From Eubacteriales bacterium (lineage in GTDB: Bacteria; Bacillota; Clostridia; Oscillospirales; CAG-382): 64,000 bases of DNA. A model generated the notes under the pieces. That model was not told the origin of the DNA and did no database searches. It saw nothing but the letters and a program-made list of their open reading frames with translations. Position 1 is the stretch's first letter, and every line of letters begins with the position of its first letter. A program made the position numbers and the translations under genes. Below, one piece after another: positions 1,065 to 54,073 of the stretch. The stretch spans positions 216 to 64,215 of the forward strand of contig JAZNWF010000004.1 of NCBI GenBank assembly GCA_045593165.1, read 5' to 3'.

Positions 1065-1098
1065 TGCGAGACTTCTGATAAGGAAGTCTCGCAGTTTT
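1065..1098 (+). terminator. Rho-independent terminator
   Basis: 11-bp stem TGCGAGACTTC / GAAGTCTCGCA followed by GTTTT. Confidence 0.8.
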
Positions 1099-1099
1099 A

Positions 1100-1262
1100 T
1101 TCGCCAAATATATTTGGCGAGTGATATTGCTTCGCAGTGATATGATGCTTCGCATCGTGATATTCGGCTACGCCGAGTTTGGCGAATAAAATAACACTGA
1201 AACCGAAAGGTTTCAATAACACTATTGCTTTGCAATAATATCACTCCGACGAAGTCGGAATA
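1100..1262. repeat. Array of short hairpins separated by GTGATAT / ATAACAC / ATATCAC words
   Basis: Hairpins seen: TCGCCAAATATATTTGGCGA, TGCTTCGCA (twice), CGGCTACGCCG, GAAACCGAAAGGTTTC, ATTGCTTTGCAAT and TCCGACGAAGTCGGA. GTGATAT occurs three times in the 5' half, and its complement-like words ATAACAC (twice) and ATATCAC occur in the 3' half. Confidence 0.5.
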
Positions 1263-5071: not shown

Positions 5072-6340
5072 CTAATCAAGCATTATTTTAACTATTTCCT
5101 CATCGGTGGGCTGCATACCTACTCTGCCGATATGACCGACACAGCTTATCGTTTCGCCCGTATCATCCTGCAATATTCCCGTATTGGATTCATACGCTTT
5201 GCCCTGCATTGCAAGTGCGTGAGCGAACAGCGCCGCATCAAGCGCAGACGATATCTTCGCCGCGCACGACGCCTTTGCTCCATCGCAAATTATGCCCGGA
5301 ATATCCGCAAGAGTATTGTCGATAGTATCCTTTATTTGCTTGAGCGTGCCGCCGAGCATATAGGTTATCGAAGCACCTGCCGCACAAGCCGCCGATACTG
5401 CGCCGCAGAATGCCGAAAGCTTGCCGATATATTCCTTCTGATAAACCGTCATCAAGCTTGAAAAGACAAGCGCACGACGCATGGTTTCCTCGGGAATGCC
5501 CTTTTCCCTTGCGTATACGATGATCGGAACGGTAGAGGTGATGCCCTGATTACCGCTTCCCGAGGTTATAATTACAGGCATATCGCAACCATCCATACGA
5601 GCTTCGGACGCGGCGGACGAATATGAACGTATTTTTGTAAACACGCTGTTTGCATATACCTCAAGAATCGATTTTCCGATACCAACGCCGTAATCGCCCT
5701 TCATTCCGCGCTCGGCAATTGCCATATTACAGCTTATTTGCTTATCGGTAAGCTCGCGTATCTTATCGATTTCCACTTCATTGGCAAAGGCAAGTATATT
5801 TTCAATGCTCAAAGCACTTCTGTCGGCAACCTCGCTTGCCGCCTGTAAGCTCTCGTCAACAAAAAGCATTTCGCCATTTTTGGTAATACGTACGATATTG
5901 ATATGGCTGTAACGCACCTCGACGCTCACGTTATCGTTCCCTGCATACATTTCTATAATAAAATGAAGCGGCACAGAGGATGCAAGATATTCTACCTTAC
6001 AGCGATCTTCCTTTATAAAAGCCTTGGTCTTTGCCAGCCCCTCGGGAGTAACTGCCTCTAAAACCTCCATATCGCGTTTTGCATCGCCCGATATTGCACC
6101 AAGGACACACGCAGGCTCGATACCCGTCATTCCGCCCGAATTGGGAATACGCACACAGCGTACGTTTTTGATCATATTGCCGCTACACTTTGCAAGTATA
6201 TGTTCGGGCTCGCATCCCAGCACGTCACGCGCCTTGGCAGCGGCATAAGCCAACGCGATCGGCTCGGTACAGCCCATAGCGGGAACAAGCTCTTCGCGCA
6301 GAATATCCAAAAACGAGCATTTTATCTTTTCATTCAACAT
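5072..6340 (-). CDS. UPF0597/YhaM-type L-cysteine desulfidase family protein (serine dehydratase alpha-like)
   Basis: 422 aa. The N-terminal motif PAMGCTEPIALAYAAAKA and the GSGNQG region are typical of this family. Confidence 0.7.
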   Translation of the reverse strand: MLNEKIKCSFLDILREELVPAMGCTEPIALAYAAAKARDVLGCEPEHILAKCSGNMIKNVRCVRIPNSGGMTGIEPACVLGAISGDAKRDMEVLEAVTPEGLAKTKAFIKEDRCKVEYLASSVPLHFIIEMYAGNDNVSVEVRYSHINIVRITKNGEMLFVDESLQAASEVADRSALSIENILAFANEVEIDKIRELTDKQISCNMAIAERGMKGDYGVGIGKSILEVYANSVFTKIRSYSSAASEARMDGCDMPVIITSGSGNQGITSTVPIIVYAREKGIPEETMRRALVFSSLMTVYQKEYIGKLSAFCGAVSAACAAGASITYMLGGTLKQIKDTIDNTLADIPGIICDGAKASCAAKISSALDAALFAHALAMQGKAYESNTGILQDDTGETISCVGHIGRVGMQPTDEEIVKIMLD

Positions 6341-6507: not shown

Positions 6508-6536
6508 TTGACTTTATCTGCAAAGCGTGCTAATAT
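6508..6536 (+). promoter_or_regulatory. Sigma-A promoter of T-box operon 1
   Basis: TTGACT (6508-6513), 17-nt spacer, TAATAT (6531-6536). Confidence 0.65.
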
Positions 6537-6542
6537 ACTAAA

Positions 6543-6829
6543 GAACTTAAATGCGTTTGAGCAGGAACAAGTAGATTTAGACGGGCCCATACAGAGAGTT
6601 GTCGGTTGGTGCGAGGCAACGGGAAAAGCTATTTTGAATTCATCCTGTGAGCTGTGCACCGAACAAAAGGTTATCTTTTAAGTAAGCTGCAACGGGCGTT
6701 CCCGTAACAGAACAAGAGTGTTATTGCACTCCCCGAGGCCGCAATCGCGAGAAAGCGGTAAATAGAGGTGGTACCACGAGTCTTCTCGTCCTCTGTATTC
6801 TTTTCAGGAATACAGAGGATTTATTTTTT
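6543..6829 (+). promoter_or_regulatory. T-box riboswitch leader, specifier UUC (Phe)
   Basis: Stem I has GA motifs (GAgCAGGA / TCCTGtGA), an AGAGAG bulge and a TGGTGCGAG distal loop. The specifier loop reads GAA-TTC-A (TTC at 6639-6641). The T-box sequence is GAGGTGGTACCACGAG (6765-6780). The terminator is CCTCTGTATTC/GAATACAGAGG plus a T-run (6790-6829). Confidence 0.85.
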
Positions 6830-6859
6830 GTAAATTATTTTAATATAAAGGTGATAAAA

Positions 6860-8167
6860 ATGGAACAAAGGTATTATCAAAAAGAAATTGAGACCATGCC
6901 CGTTGAGGAGATGAAAAAGCTCCAATCCGAAAAGCTGGTACGTCAGGTAAAGCACGTTTATGAAAACGTTCCTTATTACCGTAACCTTATGGATGAAAAG
7001 GGTGTTAAGCCCGAAGATATCAACGGTATTGAGGATCTTCACAAGCTTCCCTTCCTTACCAAAGCCGATCTTCGCGATGCATATCCTTACGGACTTCTCG
7101 CAAAGCCGCTTGACGAATGCGTACGTATTCAGTCTACCTCGGGCACAACCGGACGCCGTGTTGTTGCTTTCTACACACAAAATGACGTAGACCTTTGGGA
7201 AGATTGCTGTGCACGTGCTATCGTTGCTGCCGGCGGAACCAACAAGGACGTATGTCAGGTTGCATACGGCTACGGTCTTTTCACAGGCGGTCCCGGTCTT
7301 AACGGCGGCTCACACCGTGTAGGTTGCTTGACGCTTCCTATGTCTTCGGGTAATACCGAACGTCAGATTCAATTTATGACCGACCTTTCCGCAACTATTC
7401 TTTGCTGTACCCCCTCCTACGCCGCATATATCGGCGAAACCTTGAAGGAAAAGGGCTATAAGCCCGAGGATATTCCCTTGAAGGCAGGTATTTTCGGTGC
7501 AGAGCCATGGACCGAGGAAATGCGCAAAAATATTGAAGAAACCTTGGGTATAAAGGCATACGACATCTACGGTCTTACCGAAACCTCCGGCCCGGGCGTG
7601 TCGTTCGAATGCTGTGAGCAGACCGGTATGCATATCAACGAGGACCACTTCCTTGCGGAAATTATTGATCCCGACACGGGCGAGGTTCTTCCCGAAGGAA
7701 GCAAGGGCGAGCTTGTATTCACCTCGCTCGACAAGGAGGCGTTCCCGCTTTTACGTTACCGCACACGTGATATCTGCGTGCTCTCGCGCAAGAAGTGCTC
7801 CTGCGGACGTACGCTTATTAAAATGGCGAAGCCAATGGGCAGAACCGACGATATGCTTATCATCCGCGGCGTAAACGTGTTCCCGAGCCAGATCGAAACC
7901 GTACTTCTTAACGAAGGATACGAGCCTAATTACCAGATCATCGTAGACAGACAGAACAACAACGACACGTTCGACATTAACGTTGAAATGACAGCAGAAA
8001 AATTCTCGGACAAGGTAACCGAAATTCTTGCTATGGAAAAATCTCTTGCAAACGCGATGAAGACTATGCTCGGCATCAATCCTACCGTTCATCTTGTCGC
8101 ACCCAAGACTATTGCGCGAAGCGAAGGCAAGGCTGTCCGCGTAGTTGACAAGCGCAAATTGGTTTAA
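6860..8167 (+). CDS. paaK: Phenylacetate--CoA ligase family protein (PaaK / F390-synthetase-like adenylate-forming enzyme)
   Basis: ATG at 6860 lies 6 nt after AAGGTG; the tracked start at 6851 is a GTG inside the RBS. Motifs seen: YYRNLMDEKGVKPEDI, LPFLTKADLRDAYP, QSTSGTTGRRVV, YGLTE, MLIIRGVNVFPSQIE. Confidence 0.85.
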   Translation: MEQRYYQKEIETMPVEEMKKLQSEKLVRQVKHVYENVPYYRNLMDEKGVKPEDINGIEDLHKLPFLTKADLRDAYPYGLLAKPLDECVRIQSTSGTTGRRVVAFYTQNDVDLWEDCCARAIVAAGGTNKDVCQVAYGYGLFTGGPGLNGGSHRVGCLTLPMSSGNTERQIQFMTDLSATILCCTPSYAAYIGETLKEKGYKPEDIPLKAGIFGAEPWTEEMRKNIEETLGIKAYDIYGLTETSGPGVSFECCEQTGMHINEDHFLAEIIDPDTGEVLPEGSKGELVFTSLDKEAFPLLRYRTRDICVLSRKKCSCGRTLIKMAKPMGRTDDMLIIRGVNVFPSQIETVLLNEGYEPNYQIIVDRQNNNDTFDINVEMTAEKFSDKVTEILAMEKSLANAMKTMLGINPTVHLVAPKTIARSEGKAVRVVDKRKLV

Positions 8168-8188
8168 TTAAAGAAAGGGGATATCACA

Positions 8189-8620
8189 ATGGCAATTAAA
8201 CAGTTGACCGTATTCGTAGAAAACAAACAGGGCGCGCTCGTTTCGATTACCGACACGCTCGCACAGAACAACGTGAATATCAGAGCCCTCTCGATTGCCG
8301 AAACAAACGATTTCGGTATACTCCGTCTTATTGTAAATGATGAAGCCACCGCTGAAAAGACTCTTGCGGAAAAGGGTTATCTTATAAAGGTGACAGAGGT
8401 AGTCGGTGTTAAGATAGGCGATGCACCCGGCAAGCTTACCGCCGCGCTCGATGTGCTTGACAGATCGGGTATCAATATGGAATATCTTTACGCGTTTATG
8501 GCGCGTACCGAAAAGCACGCATACGTAGTTCTTCGCGTTGAAGACAATGAAATTGCAGAGGCTGCACTCGAAAACGCAGGCTTCCACCTCATTACAGACG
8601 CAGATATCTGCAAGCTTTAA
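8189..8620 (+). CDS. Tandem ACT-domain (amino-acid-binding) protein
   Basis: 143 aa. Two beta-alpha-beta-beta-alpha-beta ACT-like halves are visible (LTVFVENKQGALVSITDTLAQNNVNIRALS and VGVKIGDAPGKLTAALDVLDRSGINMEYLY). It is co-operonic with paaK. Confidence 0.75.
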   Translation: MAIKQLTVFVENKQGALVSITDTLAQNNVNIRALSIAETNDFGILRLIVNDEATAEKTLAEKGYLIKVTEVVGVKIGDAPGKLTAALDVLDRSGINMEYLYAFMARTEKHAYVVLRVEDNEIAEAALENAGFHLITDADICKL

Positions 8621-8637
8621 TTTAATTTAATTAAAAA

Positions 8638-8672
8638 GCATCGGACGTCGATTTGGCATCCGATGCTTTTTT
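8638..8672 (+). terminator. Rho-independent terminator
   Basis: GCATCGGA / TCCGATGC stem followed by TTTTTT. Confidence 0.8.
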
Positions 8673-8734: not shown

Positions 8735-9016
8735 AATAATAAACGCAGTGATGCGGAATAGTATGCAAAAGCATTCGCCGTACAGAGAGATGCCGTTTGG
8801 TGCGAGGCATTGGGAATTCTTTGCAGAACTCACCGCGGAGCGGCTGCCGTGAAAATCAGACGTAAGGGCAGACGGGAGCTCCCGTAACAGAGTAAAGATG
8901 TTTTTGCATCTAAGGGCATCCGCAACGGATGAAGAAGAGTGGTACCGCGGAAAAGTTAACTTTGTTTTTAACGTTTTCGTCTCTTTGAACCGACAAGGAG
9001 ACGGGAGCGTTTTTTT
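8735..9016 (+). promoter_or_regulatory. T-box riboswitch leader, specifier CUC (Leu)
   Basis: GA motifs GAtGCGG / CCGCgGA; AGTA in the 5' specifier loop; upper helix TGCAAA/TTTGCA; AGAGAG bulge; TGGTGCGAG distal loop. The specifier reads GAA-CTC-A (CTC at 8829-8831). The T-box sequence is AGAGTGGTACCGCGG (8936-8950). A terminator hairpin at 8972-9009 is followed by T7. Confidence 0.85.
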
Positions 9017-9070: not shown

Positions 9071-10459
9071 ATGAAAAAAATCAACATTTCCGATATCACA
9101 CTCAAAAAGCTTTCGCAGGATCGCAGCTTCTCGCTTCTTTTCCGTGAAAAGACCGCAATCGCAGTATGTGCAGATTCGCTCGGTGCAAACACTGTTGAGC
9201 TTGCACCCGTGAAGAACGCGCGCGAGGATGCTATCATTTGTAAAACGATCTCGCAAAACGTACGCAACGCAACACTAGCTATACCCGTAGGCTTTACTGC
9301 CGACGAGGTTCAGACTGCTTGGGAATGCATAAAGGATGCCAAATCTCCTCGTTTGCAGATAGAGATTCCCGCATCCACCGTTTTGATGGAATACACATAC
9401 CACATCAAATCCGAAAAAATGCTTACGAAAATTGCAGAATTGGTAAAATGTGCAAAATCGTTCTGCGAGGATATCGAATTCTCCGCGCTTGACGCAACGC
9501 GCGCAGACGTTGATTTTCTCGTTGCCGCGGCAAAGGAAGCAGAAAGTAACGGTGCGAGCATTATTACCATTTGCGATGATGCAGGAGTATCTCTCCCGCA
9601 AGATATCGCGAATCTTACCGCAAAGGTAAAGGAAAACGTATCCATACCTGTATACGTTCAGGTATCCGATAAAATCAACATGGCGGTCGCTTCTGCAATT
9701 GCGGCGATCTCCGCAGGTGCAGACGGTATCAAATGCGCTATGGCAGGCAAGGACGTTCTTCTCACCGGCGAGTTGGCTGATGCGCTTAAAGCCTGCAATT
9801 CGCAGATAGGCGCAGAAACCGATTTAAATAACACAAAAATCCATACAAGTATAGAGGATATGCTTTCCAATATCAATCACGAAGCATATGAAAACGAAGC
9901 AACAGTAAGTGAAAAGAAGAGAATGCTTCTCGATGCTGACAGCACAATTGCACAGGTAGCACATGCAACACAGATACTTGGCTACGAATTATCCGATTCC
10001 GATATCGGTAACGTACACAAGGCGCTTATCCAGGTATGTGAAAAGAAGGATACCGTAGGTGCAAAGGAGCTCGAAGCGCTTATTGCAAGCTCGGCTATGC
10101 AAGCTCCCTCTACATATCATCTCGAAAGCTACACTACCAACAGCAGTAATCTTGCAAGCTCTATGTCGCAGGTTACATTGAAATGCAACGGCGAAACCAT
10201 TTGCGGTGTCAGCACGGGCGACGGACCTATTGATTCGGCATTCCGAGCTATTGAACAGTGTATTGGCTTCCATTACGAATTAGACGATTTTCAGGTACAG
10301 TCCGTAACTGAAGGAAAGGAAGCGTTGGGCTCTGCTCTCGTACGCTTGCGTAACAACGGCAAGCTATATTCGGGTAACGGCATTTCGACCGATATTGTTG
10401 CGGCAAGCATAAGAGCATACATAAATGCACTCAACAAGATCGTATTCGAGGAGGCATAA
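9071..10459 (+). CDS. 2-isopropylmalate synthase (LeuA) paralog with degenerate catalytic motifs and an intact LeuA C-terminal regulatory domain
   Basis: It is collinear with LeuA, but DTTLRDGEQ is replaced by DITLKKLSQ, the H-x-H metal motif by QVSDK, and no HESGIHQDG is present. The C-terminus GDGPIDSAFRAIEQCI...GKEALGSALVRLRNNGKLYSGNGISTDIVAASIRAYINALNK matches the LeuA allosteric domain. Confidence 0.7.
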   Translation: MKKINISDITLKKLSQDRSFSLLFREKTAIAVCADSLGANTVELAPVKNAREDAIICKTISQNVRNATLAIPVGFTADEVQTAWECIKDAKSPRLQIEIPASTVLMEYTYHIKSEKMLTKIAELVKCAKSFCEDIEFSALDATRADVDFLVAAAKEAESNGASIITICDDAGVSLPQDIANLTAKVKENVSIPVYVQVSDKINMAVASAIAAISAGADGIKCAMAGKDVLLTGELADALKACNSQIGAETDLNNTKIHTSIEDMLSNINHEAYENEATVSEKKRMLLDADSTIAQVAHATQILGYELSDSDIGNVHKALIQVCEKKDTVGAKELEALIASSAMQAPSTYHLESYTTNSSNLASSMSQVTLKCNGETICGVSTGDGPIDSAFRAIEQCIGFHYELDDFQVQSVTEGKEALGSALVRLRNNGKLYSGNGISTDIVAASIRAYINALNKIVFEEA

Positions 10460-10460
10460 A

Positions 10461-12920
10461 ATGAAAATCGTATTCTCAACAAAAAACGTAAGCAGGTCAT
10501 CCTTTCTCGACACCTGCCGTTATGCGTACGATTACGGTTTTGAAGGCTTCGAAATATACGATGCCATCAAGGAGCGCAGTCAGCATCACGACAGCATTTT
10601 ACGCCGCGACCGTGTTTCAGACGCAAAAAGAAAGCTGATAAACCGCAATCTTTCCGTATCCGCACTCAGCTATCCCTATTCACTTGAACGTAACGACGCG
10701 AATGCGGAAACGATTTTGAAATACGTGGATATGGCGGCAAGCGCGGGCATCGCTTATATTATAGTCCGTATTGAAAATGAAGTTGAATTCGACGTATTAA
10801 AGGAAAAATTAGAGCCTGCAGTCAAGCGTGCAGAAATCTCCGACGTCGGTATACTTTTGGAAACCGTAGGATACCTTTCCGACACGGAAAAGGTAATAGA
10901 AATAATCAACCGCTTTTCTTCTGCCGCAATAGGCGCATCGTGGAACGTACGAGGCACTTATTTCGGCGCAGGTGAAACGGCTGAAACCACCATCAAGGTA
11001 CTCGGCGCATACATAAAATACGTACGCTTGGGCGATATGAAGGACGGCAAGACCGTGCTTATCGGAGAGGGCGAGCTTCCTGTGGAAAAGCTCCTCGGTG
11101 CGCTTTCCTCGCTGAATTTCGACGGATTTATCTGCGCGGCGTGGAACGAGGAAATAAACGACGCAGATATCGTGCTCACCCATTTCACAAATTACATCGC
11201 ATCTTTAAGCCGCGACAAAAAGGAGCACGACCGTTATTATTACAACCGCTCGAGAACCGGCACGTTCGTATGGAAGAAATACGACGTTATCGACGCAACC
11301 TTCTCCGACGTGCTTGACACAATGGTAGAAAACTACCCCGACCAGTACGCCTTCAAATACCCAACGCTTGATTACACGAGAACCTACGAGCAGTTCCGCC
11401 GTGACGTAGACGAATGTGCGGCAGCGCTCATTTCTTTGGGCGTAAAGGCGGGCGACCACGTCGCTGTTTGGGCAACCAACGTACCCGAATGGTATATTAC
11501 CTTCTGGGCAACCACAAAAATCGGTGCAGTTCTGGTAACGGTAAATACCGCATACAAGATTCACGAAATAGAATACCTGTTAAAGCAGTCCGACACTCAT
11601 ACGCTCGTTATGATCGAGTACTGTAAAGACATCAACTACAAGGAAATTATACAAGAGCTCTGCCCCGAGCTTGAAACGCTTACTCCCGGAAAACCGCTTT
11701 ATTCGAAAAACCTTCCCTTCTTGCGCAACGTTGTAACCGTTGGATTTTCGATGAACGGCTGTCTGGATTGGAATCAGATGCTTTCGCGTTCCTCGCTCGT
11801 TCCCCGCGAAGAAGTGCGCAGACGCGCTTCCTTGGTTAAGCCCGATGACGTATGTAATATGCAATATACCTCGGGTACGACAGGCTTCCCCAAGGGTGTT
11901 ATGCTCACTCACCGCAACATAGTAAACAACGGCAAGACAATCGGCGACAGAATGGACCTTTCCACCGCCGACCGTATGATGATACAGGTTCCGATGTTCC
12001 ATTGCTTCGGCATGGTGCTTTCGATGACCTCTATGATGACCCACGGCGGCACGCTTTGCCCTATTCCCTATTTCTCGCCCAAATCATCGCTTGCCTGCGT
12101 AAACGACGAGCACATAACCTGCTTCAACGGCGTTCCTACTATGTTTATCGCGATGTTCAACCACAAGGATTTTGCAAAAACCGACTTCTCGTATATGAGA
12201 ACCGGTATCATGGCAGGCGCAAACTGCCCTGCAGACCTTATGCGCCGTGCGGCAGATGAAATGAAGATGCGCGAGATAATCTCAGTTTACGGACAGACCG
12301 AGGCTTCGCCCGGCTGTACTATGGGCGAGGTAAACGAGGACATTGACCACCGCGTTGAAACGGTAGGCAGCCCCTTCCCCGGTGTTGAATGCAAGGTTAT
12401 CGACCCCGAAACGGGAGAAGAACTTCCCGACGGAGAAAGCGGCGAATTTGTAGCGCGCGGCTTCAATATTATGAAGGGTTATTACAAGATGCCCGAGGCA
12501 ACCGCACAAGCGATCGATGCTGACGGTTGGCTTCACAGCGGTGATATATGCTGTCGCACCCCCGACGGATACTACAAAGTAACCGGCAGATTGAAGGATA
12601 TGATAATCCGCGGCGGCGAAAACCTTTACCCGCGCGAAATCGAAGAGTTTTACCTTACCAACCCTAAGGTACGCGACGTTCAGGTTGTTGGCGTTCCCGA
12701 CGAAAAGTACGGCGAGGAATGCTGTGCGTGGGTAATACTCCACAAGGGCGAAACGGCAGACGAAAACGAAATGAAGGAATTCGGCAATGCGTTTATCGCG
12801 CGTCACAAGGTTCCGAGATATTTCCTTTTCGTCAATGAATTCCCGATGAATGCCGCAGGTAAAATACTCAAATACAAGATGCGTGACGAATCTGTTGAGA
12901 TTTTAGGGCTCAAAAAATAA
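10461..12920 (+). CDS. Fusion protein: xylose-isomerase-like TIM barrel (sugar phosphate isomerase/epimerase fold) plus an AMP-dependent acyl-CoA ligase (FadD/YngI-like)
   Basis: ATG at 10461 follows GAGGAGG; the tracked start at 10425 overlaps the upstream gene. About 270 N-terminal aa look like a TIM barrel (FEGFEIYD, ILLETVG, YVRLGD). The C-terminal part has AMP-binding motifs: MQYTSGTTGFPKGVMLTHRN, YGQTE, GWLHSGD, IIRGGENLYPREIE, AAGKILK. Confidence 0.75.
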   Translation: MKIVFSTKNVSRSSFLDTCRYAYDYGFEGFEIYDAIKERSQHHDSILRRDRVSDAKRKLINRNLSVSALSYPYSLERNDANAETILKYVDMAASAGIAYIIVRIENEVEFDVLKEKLEPAVKRAEISDVGILLETVGYLSDTEKVIEIINRFSSAAIGASWNVRGTYFGAGETAETTIKVLGAYIKYVRLGDMKDGKTVLIGEGELPVEKLLGALSSLNFDGFICAAWNEEINDADIVLTHFTNYIASLSRDKKEHDRYYYNRSRTGTFVWKKYDVIDATFSDVLDTMVENYPDQYAFKYPTLDYTRTYEQFRRDVDECAAALISLGVKAGDHVAVWATNVPEWYITFWATTKIGAVLVTVNTAYKIHEIEYLLKQSDTHTLVMIEYCKDINYKEIIQELCPELETLTPGKPLYSKNLPFLRNVVTVGFSMNGCLDWNQMLSRSSLVPREEVRRRASLVKPDDVCNMQYTSGTTGFPKGVMLTHRNIVNNGKTIGDRMDLSTADRMMIQVPMFHCFGMVLSMTSMMTHGGTLCPIPYFSPKSSLACVNDEHITCFNGVPTMFIAMFNHKDFAKTDFSYMRTGIMAGANCPADLMRRAADEMKMREIISVYGQTEASPGCTMGEVNEDIDHRVETVGSPFPGVECKVIDPETGEELPDGESGEFVARGFNIMKGYYKMPEATAQAIDADGWLHSGDICCRTPDGYYKVTGRLKDMIIRGGENLYPREIEEFYLTNPKVRDVQVVGVPDEKYGEECCAWVILHKGETADENEMKEFGNAFIARHKVPRYFLFVNEFPMNAAGKILKYKMRDESVEILGLKK

Positions 12921-13009: not shown

Positions 13010-13272
13010 ACAAACAACTATGACGAAGACGGTCGGATTGCCAAATCTTCAGAGAGTTGGCGGTTGCTGCGAGCCAACGATGAAGCTTTCCAATGACCCA
13101 TCACTTCCGAGTTGGAGGACCGAAAATTTTATGAGTAGGCTCCTTCCGTAAAGCTGCGTTAAAGCAAGGGCTTGTCAGAGCCTATAAGGTGGCGGAATTT
13201 ATTTCCGCAATTTGAGTGGTACCGCGAGTTGTATGACCCGTCTCAAAGCAAAACTTTGGGACGGGTTTTTTG
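13010..13272 (+). promoter_or_regulatory. T-box riboswitch leader, probable specifier AUC (Ile)
   Basis: GA motifs GAcGAAG / CTTCcGA; AGAGAG bulge; GTTGGC/GCCAAC helix with a GCTGCGA distal loop. ATC-A (13100-13103) sits directly 5' of the basal helix, in the same register as the other two T-boxes. The T-box sequence is TGAGTGGTACCGCGAG (13213-13228). The terminator is ACCCGTC/GACGGGT plus T6 (13236-13272). Confidence 0.75.
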
Positions 13273-13331: not shown

Positions 13332-15632
13332 ATGGAAATGAATTTGAAAGAGGTAGCAGGCAGAATCAAAGCGCTGCGCGAGGCAAAGGGCTATTCGCAG
13401 GAGGAGCTTGCAAAGCTTACCGGTGTATCGGTTGAGGATTACAAGCTTTTAGAGCAGGGCGAAACCGATTTCAGCTTTACCTTCATCTACAAGTGTGCAA
13501 AGGCGTGCAACGTTGAGGTTGTTGACATTATCGAGGGTACGAGTACTACTCTTACCTCGTTTGCAATTACCCGTAAGGGCGAGGGTCTTGAAATAATTAA
13601 AAAGCAGGCAGGCGTTTATTACAACCTTGCACCTAAATTCAAGGATAAGCTTGCCGAGCCGTTTTTGGTAAAGATGCCCTATATGGCAGAGGAGCAGAAC
13701 GCGCCTATCAAGCTTAATTCGCACAACGGTCAGGAATTTGACGTTATCGTTAAGGGCTCACTCAAGGTCCAGGTCGGCGGACATATTGCCGTTTTGAACG
13801 AGGGTGACTCGATATTCTACAACAGTATCATTCCCCACGGTATGATTGCTGTAAGCGAGGGCGGATGTGAATTCCACGCTGTCGTTTTGAATCCGCAGGA
13901 CGGTGACTACGCCGAATCCTATCCCGAAGCACCGTTCATCGCCGCAAAGACCGCCATCTCCGAAAACACGGTAAAAACCGTTGCAGATAACTTTATCGAA
14001 TCCTCATACGACGAAAACGGCGTATTTAACGGTATCGCCTTCAAGAACGACGACAAATTTAATTTCGCGTTTGACTGTGTAGATGCTATCGCAGAAAAGG
14101 ACCCCGACAAGCTTGCTATGCTTTGGGTTTCCAACGATAAAGCTGAACGCAGATTCACCTTCCGCGATATGAAGCGTTACTCGGCAAAGACAGCCAACTA
14201 TTTTGAATCGCTCGGTATTAAAAAGGGCGACACCGTAATGCTTGTATTGAAGCGTCATTATCAATTCTGGTTCTGTATGCTCGCACTCCACAAGATCGGC
14301 GCGATCGCTATCCCTGCTACCAACCAGCTTGTTGAGCACGACTTTACGTACAGATACAAGGCTGCACAGGTTAAAGCAATCGTATGCACCGCAGATGGCG
14401 AGGTTTCAACCGAGGCAGAAAAGGCTGCAAAGGATTTTCCCGGCATGATCAAGGTTCTCGTTGGCGGCAAAAAGGACGGTTGGAACGACTTTAATCTTGA
14501 AATGGAACGCTTCAGCACTCATTACGAACGCACCGAAGATTCTCCCTGCGGAAATGATCCGATGCTGATGCTTTTCACCTCCGGAACAACCGGTTATCCC
14601 CGCATCGCAACGCATTCCTTCAAGTATGCCTTAGGTCACTACCCCACCGCAAGACATTGGCACAACGTCAATCCCAACGGTCTGCACTTCACCATCTCCG
14701 ATACAGGCTGGGGCAAGGCGCTTTGGGGCAAGCTTTACGGACAATGGCTCTGTGAAGCGGCTACCTTCACCTATGACTTCGACAGATTCCGTTCGGAAGA
14801 TATTCTTCCCCTCTTTAAGCAATATAACATCACTACCTTCTGCGCACCTCCTACAATGTACCGATTCTTTATCAAGGAAGACCTTTCGAAATACGATCTT
14901 TCCTCTATCGAATATGCCACCACTGCAGGCGAAGCGCTCAACCCCGAGGTATTCAATCAGTTCAAAAAGGCTACCGGTCTTACCATTATGGAGGGCTTCG
15001 GTCAGACTGAAACCACGCTTTCTATCGCAAACTTCGTAGGATCTACTCCCAAGATTGGCTCTATGGGTAAGCCCAGTCCCTTGTACGACGTCAAGATCCT
15101 CGATCCCGACGGAAACGAATGTAAGACGGGCGACACGGGTGAGATCTGTATCAGCACCAAGAACGGAACTCCTTGCGGCTTATTTATCGGATATTATCTC
15201 GACGAGGAAAAGACCAACGACGTTTGGCACGACGGTTATTACCACACAGGTGACCAAGCGACTATGGACGAGGACGGATATCTTTGGTACGTTGGACGTA
15301 TCGACGACGTTATCAAATCTTCCGGTTACCGTATCGGCCCGTTCGAGATCGAAAGCGTTATTATGGAGCTTCCCTACGTGCTTGAATGTGCTATCACGCC
15401 CGTTCCCGATGAGATCCGCGGTCAGATCGTTAAAGCGACCATCGTTCTCACCAAGGGCACTGTAGGCACTGACGCACTGAAAAAGGAAATTCAGGAATAC
15501 GTAAAGACACACACCGCACCTTATAAGTATCCCAGAATAGTAGATTTCGTTGACGAGCTTCCCAAGACCATCAGCGGCAAGGTAAGACGTGTCGAGATCC
15601 GCAAAAAAGATTTGGAAAAATCCAACGGTTAA
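13332..15632 (+). CDS. Tripartite fusion: XRE-type HTH plus cupin plus an AMP-forming medium/short-chain acyl-CoA synthetase (ACS/MACS family)
   Basis: ATG at 13332 follows AAGGAG; the tracked start at 13212 lies inside the T-box terminator. HTH_3: LKEVAGRIKALREAKGYSQEELAKLTGVSVEDYKLLEQGE. Cupin: NSHNGQEFDVIVKGSL...GDSIFYNSIIPHGM. ACS core: LFTSGTTGYPRIA, GFGQTE, YHTGD, SSGYRIGPFEIES, ISGKVRR. Confidence 0.8.
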   Translation: MEMNLKEVAGRIKALREAKGYSQEELAKLTGVSVEDYKLLEQGETDFSFTFIYKCAKACNVEVVDIIEGTSTTLTSFAITRKGEGLEIIKKQAGVYYNLAPKFKDKLAEPFLVKMPYMAEEQNAPIKLNSHNGQEFDVIVKGSLKVQVGGHIAVLNEGDSIFYNSIIPHGMIAVSEGGCEFHAVVLNPQDGDYAESYPEAPFIAAKTAISENTVKTVADNFIESSYDENGVFNGIAFKNDDKFNFAFDCVDAIAEKDPDKLAMLWVSNDKAERRFTFRDMKRYSAKTANYFESLGIKKGDTVMLVLKRHYQFWFCMLALHKIGAIAIPATNQLVEHDFTYRYKAAQVKAIVCTADGEVSTEAEKAAKDFPGMIKVLVGGKKDGWNDFNLEMERFSTHYERTEDSPCGNDPMLMLFTSGTTGYPRIATHSFKYALGHYPTARHWHNVNPNGLHFTISDTGWGKALWGKLYGQWLCEAATFTYDFDRFRSEDILPLFKQYNITTFCAPPTMYRFFIKEDLSKYDLSSIEYATTAGEALNPEVFNQFKKATGLTIMEGFGQTETTLSIANFVGSTPKIGSMGKPSPLYDVKILDPDGNECKTGDTGEICISTKNGTPCGLFIGYYLDEEKTNDVWHDGYYHTGDQATMDEDGYLWYVGRIDDVIKSSGYRIGPFEIESVIMELPYVLECAITPVPDEIRGQIVKATIVLTKGTVGTDALKKEIQEYVKTHTAPYKYPRIVDFVDELPKTISGKVRRVEIRKKDLEKSNG

Positions 15633-15703: not shown

Positions 15704-16924
15704 TTAAAGCGAATATTTACGGAATATCTTTTTACCCTTCTTGAGCTTGATGCCCTCAGCAAGCGCAGCTTCCGAAACGGTCTGACCGACGGAGGTTACC
15801 TTTTCACCGTCGATGCTGATGCCGCCCTGCTCGATAAGACGGCGGGCTTCACCCTTGCTCTTTGCAAGCTCGCCCAACACAAGAAGATCGATAACGCTGA
15901 TATTGCCGTCAACCAAAAGCGAAGCGTCTACAACGGTTGAGGGCATATTTGCGTCGTCGCCCTCGCCGCTGAAGAGTGCACGCGAGGTTGCTTCCGCCTT
16001 CTTTGCCTCTTCCTCGCCGTGAACGAGCTCGGTAAGGCTATACGCGAGTATGGATTTCTTTTCGTTGATGCGCGAACCGTCCCATTTTTCCATTTCGTCG
16101 ATTTCTTCGATAGGAATGAAGGTGAGCATACGGATGCACTTCATAACGTCAGCATCATCAACGTTGCGCCAATACTGATAAAATTCAAAGGGCGAGGTCT
16201 TGTTGGGATCGAGCCATACTGCATTGCCTGCGGTCTTGCCCATTTTCTTGCCCTGCGAGTCGGTAAGGAGGGTTATCGTCATCGCATTAGCGTCCTTGCC
16301 GAGCTTACGTCTTATAAGCTCGGTACCGCCGAGCATATTCGACCACTGGTCGTCGCCGCCAAACTGCAGATTGCAATCGTAGTTCTTGAAAAGATAATAG
16401 AAGTCGTAGGACTGCATTATCATATAGTTGAATTCGAGGAAGGAAAGACCCTTCTCCATTCTTTGCTTGTAGCATTCGGCTCTGAGCATATTGTTTACCG
16501 AGAAGCAGGCACCGACGTCGCGAAGCATATCAACGTAATTGAGGTTCAACAGCCAATCGGCGTTGGTGATCATCATTGCCTTATCTTCACCGAATTCGAT
16601 AAACTTTTCCATCTGCTTTTTGAAGCAATCGGCGTTATGGTCGATATCTTCCTTGGTGAGCATTTTTCTCATATCGCTTCTGCCCGAGGGGTCGCCGATC
16701 ATTGTCGTGCCGCCGCCGATAAGCGCAATAGGCTTGTTGCCCGCCATCTGAAGACGCTTCATAAGAGTGAGCGCCATAAAATGACCTGCGGTAAGGCTGT
16801 CTGCGGTGCAGTCAAAGCCGATATAAAACTTTGCCTTGCCGTTATTGACAAGCTCTCTGATCTCTTCCTCATTGGTTACCTGAGCTATCAGTCCGCGCGC
16901 TTTTAATTCTTCATAAATCTGCAT
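15704..16924 (-). CDS. tyrS: Tyrosine--tRNA ligase
   Basis: 406 aa. The class I HIGH-like motif (TADSLTAGHF), the KMGKT (KMSKS) motif and a C-terminal S4 domain are present. Confidence 0.95.
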   Translation of the reverse strand: MQIYEELKARGLIAQVTNEEEIRELVNNGKAKFYIGFDCTADSLTAGHFMALTLMKRLQMAGNKPIALIGGGTTMIGDPSGRSDMRKMLTKEDIDHNADCFKKQMEKFIEFGEDKAMMITNADWLLNLNYVDMLRDVGACFSVNNMLRAECYKQRMEKGLSFLEFNYMIMQSYDFYYLFKNYDCNLQFGGDDQWSNMLGGTELIRRKLGKDANAMTITLLTDSQGKKMGKTAGNAVWLDPNKTSPFEFYQYWRNVDDADVMKCIRMLTFIPIEEIDEMEKWDGSRINEKKSILAYSLTELVHGEEEAKKAEATSRALFSGEGDDANMPSTVVDASLLVDGNISVIDLLVLGELAKSKGEARRLIEQGGISIDGEKVTSVGQTVSEAALAEGIKLKKGKKIFRKYSL

Positions 16925-53296: not shown

Positions 53297-54073
53297 TTAT
53301 ACGTTCGCATATGATTTGTTTTTAAGCCTTAAATTATCTGCGATCATCGCTATAAATTCGGAATTCGTGGGTTTGCCGCGGGAATTTTGAACGGTATAGC
53401 CGAAGAACGAATTCAGCACGTCAAGATCTCCCCTATCCCAAGCAACCTCAATTGCGTGGCGTATTGCACGCTCAACTCGCGAGCTTGTCGTGCCATACTG
53501 CTTGGCAACCGACGGATACAATATCTTTGTAACAGAGTTTATGTAATCGGTATTGTTTATCGTCATTATTATCGCGGTACGAAGATACTGATAGCCCTTG
53601 ATATGCGCGGGAACGCCTATCTGATGTATTATCTTTGTGACCTGCGCCTCCAAATCTGCTTCATCGCGGTTGGGAACGGTTGCACCGCCGCGGCGTCTTC
53701 CCTTATCTGCAAGACGCTTTACTCGGTCACCCAACGTCGTGAAGTCGATCGGCTTAAGCATACAATAAGTCGCGCCGGCTTCACAGCATTCACGGAATTG
53801 ATCGTCACTCGCATAAGCGGTAACCATTATAAACGCAGGAAAATCATCGGGTATTTGCTTCTTTGCGCTTCGTATAAGCCCTACTCCATCTATCTTTCCG
53901 AGAAAAATATCCGAAATGACTATATTCGGCTTATGCCTGACTATCTTCTGAAAGGCCTCATGCCCATCAGATGCTTCCGCGACAACTTCTATATCCATCC
54001 TTCTTAAGCTTTGGACACATTGATTTCTGAATTCGGCGTTGCTATCCGCCACTAATACCTTCGGCTTTTCCAT
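53297..54073 (-). CDS. spo0A: Sporulation master regulator Spo0A
   Basis: A receiver domain plus the Spo0A-specific C-terminal domain ([17 protein letters not shown]...[32 protein letters not shown]). Confidence 0.95.

Follow-up and report, generated by a model that had tools for sequence, protein, structure and literature searches.

A phenylalanine-type T-box leader upstream of a PaaK-family CoA ligase gene and a tandem-ACT gene in an Eubacteriales bacterium

T-box leaders (Rfam: RF00230), such as the phenylalanine (Phe) T-boxes of pheST and of Phe biosynthesis and transport genes in Firmicutes, are built around a stem I with a GAA–codon–A loop, a UGGN bulge, and a terminator/antiterminator switch, and the codon in the loop corresponds to the amino acid with which the gene behind the leader is concerned. 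Here we describe a leader with the same architecture, and presumably the same mechanism, in a 64,000-nucleotide (nt) stretch of DNA from an Eubacteriales bacterium (GenBank assembly GCA_045593165.1, contig JAZNWF010000004.1, positions 216 to 64,215). We refer to this whole stretch as the window, and window coordinates are counted from its first letter. The leader lies directly upstream of a gene for a PaaK-family phenylacetate(arylacetate)-coenzyme A (CoA) ligase, which is followed by a gene for a stand-alone tandem-ACT protein. Its targets, an acyl-CoA ligase together with an ACT protein, set it apart from known T-boxes, as neither is a tRNA synthetase, a classical biosynthetic enzyme, or a transporter.

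According to work by Allison and co-workers in the 1960s, branched-chain acids and phenylacetate are reportedly reductively carboxylated by rumen bacteria. The assimilation of aryl acids through an arylacetate-CoA ligase and indolepyruvate/arylpyruvate:ferredoxin oxidoreductase (IOR) is already known: methanogens use phenylacetyl-CoA ligase together with IOR (PMC6737245), a route also given in PMC4162585, which cites Porat 2004, and the same type of assimilation applies to rumen bacteria and has been proposed for Bacteroides. A Bacteroides AMP-forming ligase that is colocalized with IOR has been assayed as an arylacetate-CoA ligase, and AMP-forming ligases have been argued to favor CoA-ester synthesis and hence biosynthesis (PMC13285125, 2026). 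The locus described here resembles these systems in having an AMP-forming PaaK-type ligase that is linked to the IOR genes iorAB in relatives, and its proposed direction, which leads from the acid through the CoA ester and the 2-oxo acid to the amino acid, is the same (PMC13285125, PMC6737245, and PMC4162585). It differs in that the window ligase is uncoupled from iorAB, with IOR not found in the window, and would stand under a Phe-specific RNA switch of its own.

The ACT protein also has described counterparts. The small subunits IlvH and IlvN of acetohydroxyacid synthase (PDB: 2F1F, 6VZ8) and the aspartokinase beta subunits (PDB: 2ZHO, 2DT9, 3AB2) are likewise small, consist of ACT domains only, and are encoded beside an amino-acid-pathway enzyme, and their folds are similar to that of the window protein (Foldseek TM 0.4–0.66). 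The difference is that the putative partner here, proposed from gene adjacency and fold, is a ligase of the ANL superfamily. We know of no ACT regulatory subunit for any ANL-superfamily ligase.

We scanned the whole window against Rfam, in which the gathering score for T-box leaders is 93 bits, and recovered three of them, all on the forward strand (6547–6796, 8739–8987, and 13011–13248). The first scores 112 bits, and its match spans the full model (1–219; E = 6e-24), comprising stem I with its specifier loop, stems II and III, the T-box sequence, and the antiterminator. A consensus scan places a sigma-70-like promoter candidate (TTGACT, a 17-nt spacer, TG, and TAATAT; 6508–6536, forward strand) about 10 nt 5′ of where the Rfam match begins. 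In the covariance-model alignment the specifier loop reads UUUUGAA-UUC-A-UCCUG. Its core (6636–6642) is formed by the GAA of the S-turn (6636–6638), the Phe codon UUC (6639–6641), and an A (6642), such that the codon is followed by a purine, and this register is identical to that of the neighboring leucine (Leu) T-box (GAA-CUC-A). The antiterminator helix (6762–6796; –12.8 kcal/mol, z = –2.7) carries a seven-nucleotide bulge, UGGUACC (6769–6775), the UGGU of which is the predicted pairing partner of the ACCA end in uncharged tRNA; the antiterminator motif GGUGGUACC is invariant among the leaders of relatives. An intrinsic terminator follows (6788–6830; –20.6 kcal/mol, z = –7.3), which consists of a 15-bp stem (6788–6820) and a U-run, the sequence 3′ of the stem being UUUAUUUUUU. 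The strand CCUCUGU is common to the antiterminator and the terminator, so the two folds are mutually exclusive. Single-sequence minimum free energy folding of stem I alone did not reproduce a T-box stem I (z near 0), and the leader structure given here is therefore based on the covariance-model alignment and a comparative fold. No tRNA-Phe gene is present in the 64-kb window. By its score, its specifier loop, and its UGGN-bulge antiterminator opposed to an intrinsic terminator, the RNA qualifies as a T-box of the ordinary kind.

To place this leader in its relatives, we scanned species-representative genomes and obtained 80 loci with PaaK orthologs that are 80–93% identical to the window ligase. 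Nearly all are from uncultured Acutalibacteraceae, Oscillospiraceae, Ruminococcus, or “Clostridia”, and the hosts of these genomes are goats, sheep, deer, yaks, buffalo, and humans, from whose guts they derive. In 35 of the 80 loci, paaK is directly preceded by a T-box, and these 35 leaders, which come from loci numbered between L001 and L068, were aligned with that of the window (n = 36). The hexamer GAAUUC (GAATTC in the DNA) is invariant in all 36, in contrast to the remainder of the specifier loop and to most stems, which vary. From this alignment, RNAalifold recovers stems I and III, the helix of the antiterminator, and the terminator, with compensatory double changes at 27 of the 54 predicted pairs, and the terminator stem is kept in the leaders of relatives. 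Taken together, the invariant GAAUUC, the compensatory changes, and the recurrence of the same leader in 35 loci indicate a maintained Phe T-box, not a chance match; we regard it as functional by these comparative criteria and predict that it responds to tRNA-Phe. In one of the leaders (L004), about 70 nt are inserted after stem I, ahead of a conserved AGUA element further downstream.

The gene controlled by this leader, paaK (6860–8167, forward strand), encodes a 435-amino-acid (aa) protein that is assigned to the PaaK family by Pfam, NCBIfam, and its match to PDB 2Y4O. Its start is most likely the ATG at 6860 rather than the GTG at 6851, and a ribosome-binding site, AAGGTGA (6848–6854), lies six bases 5′ of this ATG. 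The protein has the Pfam domains AMP-binding and AMP-binding_C_2 and aligns over its full length with the solved PaaK proteins of Burkholderia (2Y4O, E = 4e-123; 2Y27, E about 1e-122) and Bacteroides (4R1L, E = 7e-119). The ACT gene (8189–8620, forward strand) begins 21 nt 3′ of the paaK stop codon and encodes 143 aa, which match the Pfam “ACT domain pair” ACT_8 (PF19571) at 84 bits against a cut-off of 23.5 as well as ACT_AHAS_ss. In its AlphaFold model (pLDDT 88), the β-α-β-β-α-β unit of the ACT fold occurs twice. A hairpin with a U-run (8633–8671; –21.4 kcal/mol, z = –5.4) closes the operon. An earlier sequence-only reading of this DNA had placed a Phe-specific T-box in front of paaK and a protein made only of two ACT domains behind it, and its coordinates and descriptions agree with our Rfam, Pfam, and folding results: the UUC specifier is the one that does not vary among the 36 leaders, the 143-aa protein consists of the two ACT units and nothing else, and the T-box stands 5′ of a bicistronic paaK-ACT operon that ends at the terminator. 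At the sequence level, we therefore consider it confirmed that a predicted Phe-specific, transcription-attenuating T-box governs this operon.

The sole close solved relative of the ACT protein is BT0572 of Bacteroides thetaiotaomicron (PDB: 2F06; E = 2e-25, TM 0.93), a structural-genomics protein deposited without a function. It belongs to the same family, has the same length, and is also encoded after a PaaK-family ligase, the difference being a sequence identity to the window protein of 38%. Next in the structural ranking by Foldseek are YdjB (9VP8), aspartokinase regulatory subunits (TM about 0.6), and, more weakly, acetohydroxyacid synthase small subunits (TM about 0.4). In B. thetaiotaomicron, the 2F06-type gene directly follows a gene for a 432-aa PaaK-family ligase that is 54% identical to that of the window (locus L081, 4584–6426), and there are no IOR genes beside this pair. 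Bacteroidota are not known to have T-boxes, and none is counted upstream of this pair, where no scan for one was made. Among our loci, the ACT gene lies downstream of paaK in 75 of the 78 that have room for it, irrespective of the presence of iorAB or a T-box; the gap is 12–52 nt in 69 loci, which suggests co-translation of the two genes, and 175–1170 nt in six, and the remaining three loci have no neighboring ACT gene. The pairing is thus tight and crosses phyla, and its persistence with or without iorAB, including in Bacteroides, indicates that the conserved partner of the ACT protein is the ligase and not IOR. The ACT_8 family comprises 4482 clusters at 50% identity (E ≤ 1e-3), and its members are nearly all stand-alone proteins of about 143 aa. 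Conserved positions in the ACT protein are G15 and P80-G81, which provide the glycines of the two β1-α1 loops, DFGILR (41–46), and EYxYAF (98–103). We also considered the “GALV” of prephenate dehydratases as a Phe-binding signature; GALV is present at 15–18, but only its glycine is conserved among the orthologs, and we rejected this candidate.

The neighborhoods of the paaK-ACT pair connect it to IOR. We sorted the 77 related loci that have upstream sequence by layout, using Pfam and Rfam. The layout of the window, a T-box followed by paaK and ACT with no oxidoreductase nearby, occurs in 25 loci. A 546-aa ligase, iorA, iorB, the T-box, paaK, and ACT follow one another in 10 loci, and in 27 others iorA and iorB, usually with the 546-aa ligase first, precede paaK-ACT and there is no T-box. 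Four further loci have iorAB slightly farther upstream of paaK-ACT, and in the remaining 11 paaK-ACT stands alone amid unrelated genes. In total, iorA and iorB, which encode indolepyruvate:ferredoxin oxidoreductase (Pfam: POR_N, TPP_enzyme_C, and Fer4 for IorA; POR for IorB), lie no more than about 4.5 kb upstream of paaK-ACT in 41 of the 77 loci. Where the T-box adjoins iorAB, its predicted effect, judged by its position, is to gate paaK-ACT specifically. The T-box is found between iorB and paaK (at about 5640–5960) in L018, L019, L030, L038, L041, L043, L044, L047, and L051, and in these loci there is none in front of the upstream 546-aa ligase or iorAB. Such an arrangement suggests that paaK may be the Phe-specific branch of a broader aryl-acid module. 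In other relatives, paaK-ACT is located between spoIVB and spo0A (L032, 7965–8747; L057, 4636–5820 and 7955–8722). The spo0A gene of the window is at 53297–54073 on the reverse strand, about 45 kb from paaK-ACT, and the copy of paaK-ACT that bears the T-box may have been relocated.

We think it likely that this Phe T-box operon serves the rebuilding of Phe from phenylacetate when Phe runs short. When Phe is plentiful, charged tRNA-Phe could not stabilize the antiterminator, the terminator stem at 6788–6820 would form, and transcription would end before paaK. When Phe is scarce, the GAA anticodon of uncharged tRNA-Phe would pair with UUC and its ACCA end with the UGGU of the bulge, so that the antiterminator would be stabilized and paaK-ACT transcribed. 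Phenylacetate from outside the cell, a compound abundant in the contents of rumen and gut, would then be converted by the ligase to phenylacetyl-CoA at the expense of ATP, releasing AMP and pyrophosphate (PPi). An IOR, presumed to be encoded elsewhere in the genome, would combine phenylacetyl-CoA with CO2 and reduced ferredoxin to give phenylpyruvate, and transamination of phenylpyruvate would yield Phe. The tandem-ACT protein would act as a ligand-binding partner of the ligase, akin to the stand-alone ACT subunits of acetohydroxyacid synthase and aspartokinase. An anabolic role of this kind is jointly supported by the codon of the T-box, the iorAB synteny in relatives, the neighboring Leu and isoleucine (Ile) T-box ligase operons described below, and the published route. 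The sequence-only reading had argued that induction by uncharged tRNA-Phe implies a direction opposite to phenylacetate catabolism. This stands for the pathway, given iorAB in 41 loci, the sister T-boxes, and the published route, but not for the ligase step, because the ligase reaction runs in the same direction in catabolism and in assimilation and only the fate of phenylacetyl-CoA differs.

Certain observations weigh against this interpretation, and we weigh them here together with the alternatives on which they bear. There are no genes for iorAB or any other 2-oxoacid:ferredoxin oxidoreductase in the 64-kb window. Roughly half of the close relatives have paaK-ACT without a T-box, which indicates that the RNA control is lineage-specific, and the base 3′ of UUC, usually a purine, is A in 21 and C in 15 of the 36 leaders. 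Public sequencing data are uninformative on attenuation: the runs provided only assembled contigs of related strains, which share at most 27% of sampled words, and although contigs of one fecal metatranscriptome span the promoter, the leader, and paaK, their depth does not measure expression and they may reflect carried-over DNA. For the ligase, the PaaK model TIGR02155 is matched from end to end at 529 bits, which is under its equivalog cut-off of 646, such that the protein is a PaaK-family member and not a certified equivalog; against a haloarchaeal PaaK model the ligase scores 498 bits with a cut-off of 700. For the ACT protein, no fusion of ACT_8 to a ligase (a “Rosetta stone”) is present among the best 150 family representatives, and neither the gene pairing nor the fold names a ligand.

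The last of these points concern the role of the ACT protein. The protein might not regulate PaaK at all but be an independent amino-acid-binding protein that merely shares the transcript, for example as a partner of IOR or of an aminotransferase, as a ligand buffer, or as a regulator of something unlinked, and we give this alternative a serious, if minority, chance. It would account for the missing fusions, for the three loci in which paaK has no ACT neighbor and the six with wide gaps, and for the much faster evolution of the ACT protein, which has 42–89% identity across loci compared with 80–93% for PaaK. It does not sit well with an ACT gene that trails paaK where there is only a T-box, where there is iorAB, where there is neither, and in Bacteroides, nor with the gaps of 12–52 nt that prevail. 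Based on analogy with known ACT subunits, we posit that the ACT protein is most likely a dedicated small-molecule-binding regulatory partner of the ligase, possibly serving end-product feedback. That it binds Phe and controls PaaK allosterically is a reasonable hypothesis, in which the beta subunit of aspartokinase and the small subunit of acetohydroxyacid synthase serve as models for the second, allosteric layer.

A second alternative accepts the Phe T-box as real but assigns the ligase to another Phe-related acid (3-phenylpropionate, phenyllactate, cinnamate, or a broad set of arylacetates), or directs its product into a route that does not lead to Phe. The score below the PaaK equivalog cut-off leaves room for this, as do the IOR-associated ligases that have been assayed, which take phenylacetate, hydroxyphenylacetate, and indoleacetate (PMC13285125), and the second, 546-aa ligase that accompanies iorAB in relatives, with which PaaK may divide the substrates. 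We nonetheless judge it unlikely, as the window ligase aligns from end to end with structurally characterized phenylacetate-CoA ligases at E values of 1e-119 to 1e-123, the UUC specifier is invariant, and a T-box placed between iorB and paaK marks paaK as the Phe-linked step. Phenylacetate rather than another aryl acid is accordingly our proposed substrate, a choice we infer from the codon of the T-box, from homology, and from the assays of the related Bacteroides ligase.

Phe rebuilding can further be set against a catabolic or energy-conserving operon, in which IOR would oxidize phenylpyruvate derived from Phe to phenylacetyl-CoA and PaaK would either run in reverse, converting AMP and PPi to ATP, or serve phenylacetate disposal. 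PaaK is best known from aerobic phenylacetate catabolism, and iorAB adjoin paaK in many relatives; moreover, IOR is reported to make phenylacetate from Phe in B. thetaiotaomicron, according to a work cited in PMC13285125. However, an operon induced by uncharged tRNA-Phe would be expressed under a lack of Phe, and this would be senseless for Phe breakdown, and the catabolic route of fermenters uses a phosphotransacylase and a kinase, AMP-forming ligases favoring CoA-ester synthesis (PMC13285125). The window contains no ring-oxidation genes of the paaABCDE type, and the sister Leu and Ile operons point in the anabolic direction. Neither induction by Phe starvation nor an AMP-forming ligase fits easily with a catabolic role, which we consider very improbable. 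Least probable of all is that the leader is a decayed, nonfunctional remnant in front of a constitutive paaK-ACT, which the many relatives without a T-box and the base after the codon might suggest but which is contradicted by a full-length Rfam match above threshold, by the conservation of every functional element in intact form, with compensatory changes, across 35 genomes, and by an antiterminator overlapped by a strong terminator.

Phe rebuilding from phenylacetate gains context from the genes that follow. The second T-box of the window (8739–8987, forward strand; Rfam 127.8 bits) is Leu-specific, with GAA-CUC-A in its specifier loop. Among seven orthologous Leu leaders the specifier is CUC in six and CUG in one, a change that is synonymous for Leu and is therefore strong evidence for the codon register. 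This T-box precedes a LeuA paralog (9071–10459, forward strand; Pfam and alignment) without catalytic residues. Aligned to 3EWB and 3RMJ, it has DITLKKLSQ in place of DTTLRDGEQ and QVSDKIN in place of HCH(D/N)DLG, so that neither the catalytic R-D-E motif nor the metal-binding HxH motif of the DRE-TIM fold remains, losses that are kept in ten orthologs down to 50% identity. Its C-terminal LeuA allosteric, Leu-binding domain is retained and still scores 112 bits in Pfam. From these features, the paralog looks like a pseudoenzyme that may have been reused as a leucine sensor. It is followed by a xylose-isomerase-like TIM barrel (AP_endonuc_2) fused to a PRK12583-like fatty-acid/acyl-CoA ligase (10425–12920, forward strand; Pfam and NCBIfam). 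The open reading frame of this fusion overlaps the end of the LeuA paralog, and an alternative ATG at 10461, directly after the stop codon of the paralog, is possibly its real start. The pairing of LeuA paralog and TIM-ligase is kept in seven metagenomic loci.

The third T-box (13011–13248, forward strand; Rfam 106.8 bits) is Ile-specific, and its AUCA is invariant among orthologous leaders. We also considered CCC, a proline codon, as its specifier; this triplet changes to CUU in an ortholog while AUC-A is invariant, and it was rejected. The gene downstream encodes an unusual fusion protein (13332–15632, forward strand; Pfam), in which an N-terminal HTH_3 DNA-binding domain and a cupin are joined to a complete AMP-dependent acyl-CoA ligase and whose orthologs are 86–90% identical in L001, L007, and L015, with a T-box also upstream in L007 and L015. 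The window therefore has three consecutive T-boxes, for Phe, Leu, and Ile, each 5′ of an acid-activating ligase, as expected if phenylacetate, isovalerate, and 2-methylbutyrate are salvaged to the matching amino acids. Parts of this cluster of three T-box-ligase units recur in L005, L007, L015, L048, L092, and L093. Two of the three ligases are paired with a separate protein that carries an amino-acid-sensing domain, and the third has a fused HTH-cupin, which suggests, by analogy among the three, that end-product sensing at the ligase step may be a general design. The ligase-sensor pairs may be PaaK with the ACT_8 protein, the TIM-ligase with the dead LeuA, and the third ligase with its fused HTH-cupin. 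A wider proposal, which we offer tentatively and consider less likely than not, is a regulon that gates every route of acid-to-amino-acid salvage twice, by a T-box for the product and by a sensor module encoded with or fused to the ligase.

The cluster is adjoined by tyrS (15704–16924, reverse strand), which has no T-box of its own at the Rfam gathering level; tyrS is a classical T-box-regulated gene. A Gut-1 RNA match is found elsewhere in the window at 1092–1168 (forward strand; Rfam, 58.6 bits against a gathering score of 50).

Neither the class of the RNA nor the assimilation pathway is new, and it is their combination that appears to be undescribed. We found no T-box on paaK or on IOR genes in the searchable literature; regulon surveys in subscription journals lie outside this search, and an earlier mention there is possible. 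Nor did the searchable literature contain anything relevant on an ACT domain linked to a phenylacetate-CoA ligase. A T-box on paaK, and more broadly on acid-activating ligases, thus appears to be undescribed in this literature, and the conserved pairing with PaaK is a first hint of a role for ACT_8 proteins.

The T-box amounts to a built-in label of purpose, in that it marks a PaaK-type ligase as wanted when Phe is missing in gut and rumen bacteria of the Oscillospirales type. It thereby provides independent regulatory evidence on whether phenylacetate, which is of medical interest, is made or consumed by the module of IOR and AMP-forming ligase in gut anaerobes (PMC13285125). The T-box regulon is extended to acid-activating ligases, and T-box codons could be used to annotate the substrates of anonymous acyl-CoA ligases. 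For the widespread ACT_8 family, of which the structure 2F06 has been solved since 2005 without a role, the locus also suggests a function that can be tested. If the proposed pairing of ligases with sensor modules is true, it would mean that ANL-superfamily acyl-CoA ligases are under allosteric control of a kind not described before, and it would give functions to the large ACT_8 family, including 2F06, and to the LeuA-derived pseudoenzyme. Together with the Leu and Ile operons, the Phe T-box operon would assign specific genes and regulators to the requirement for phenylacetate and branched-chain acids that has long been known in rumen bacteria.

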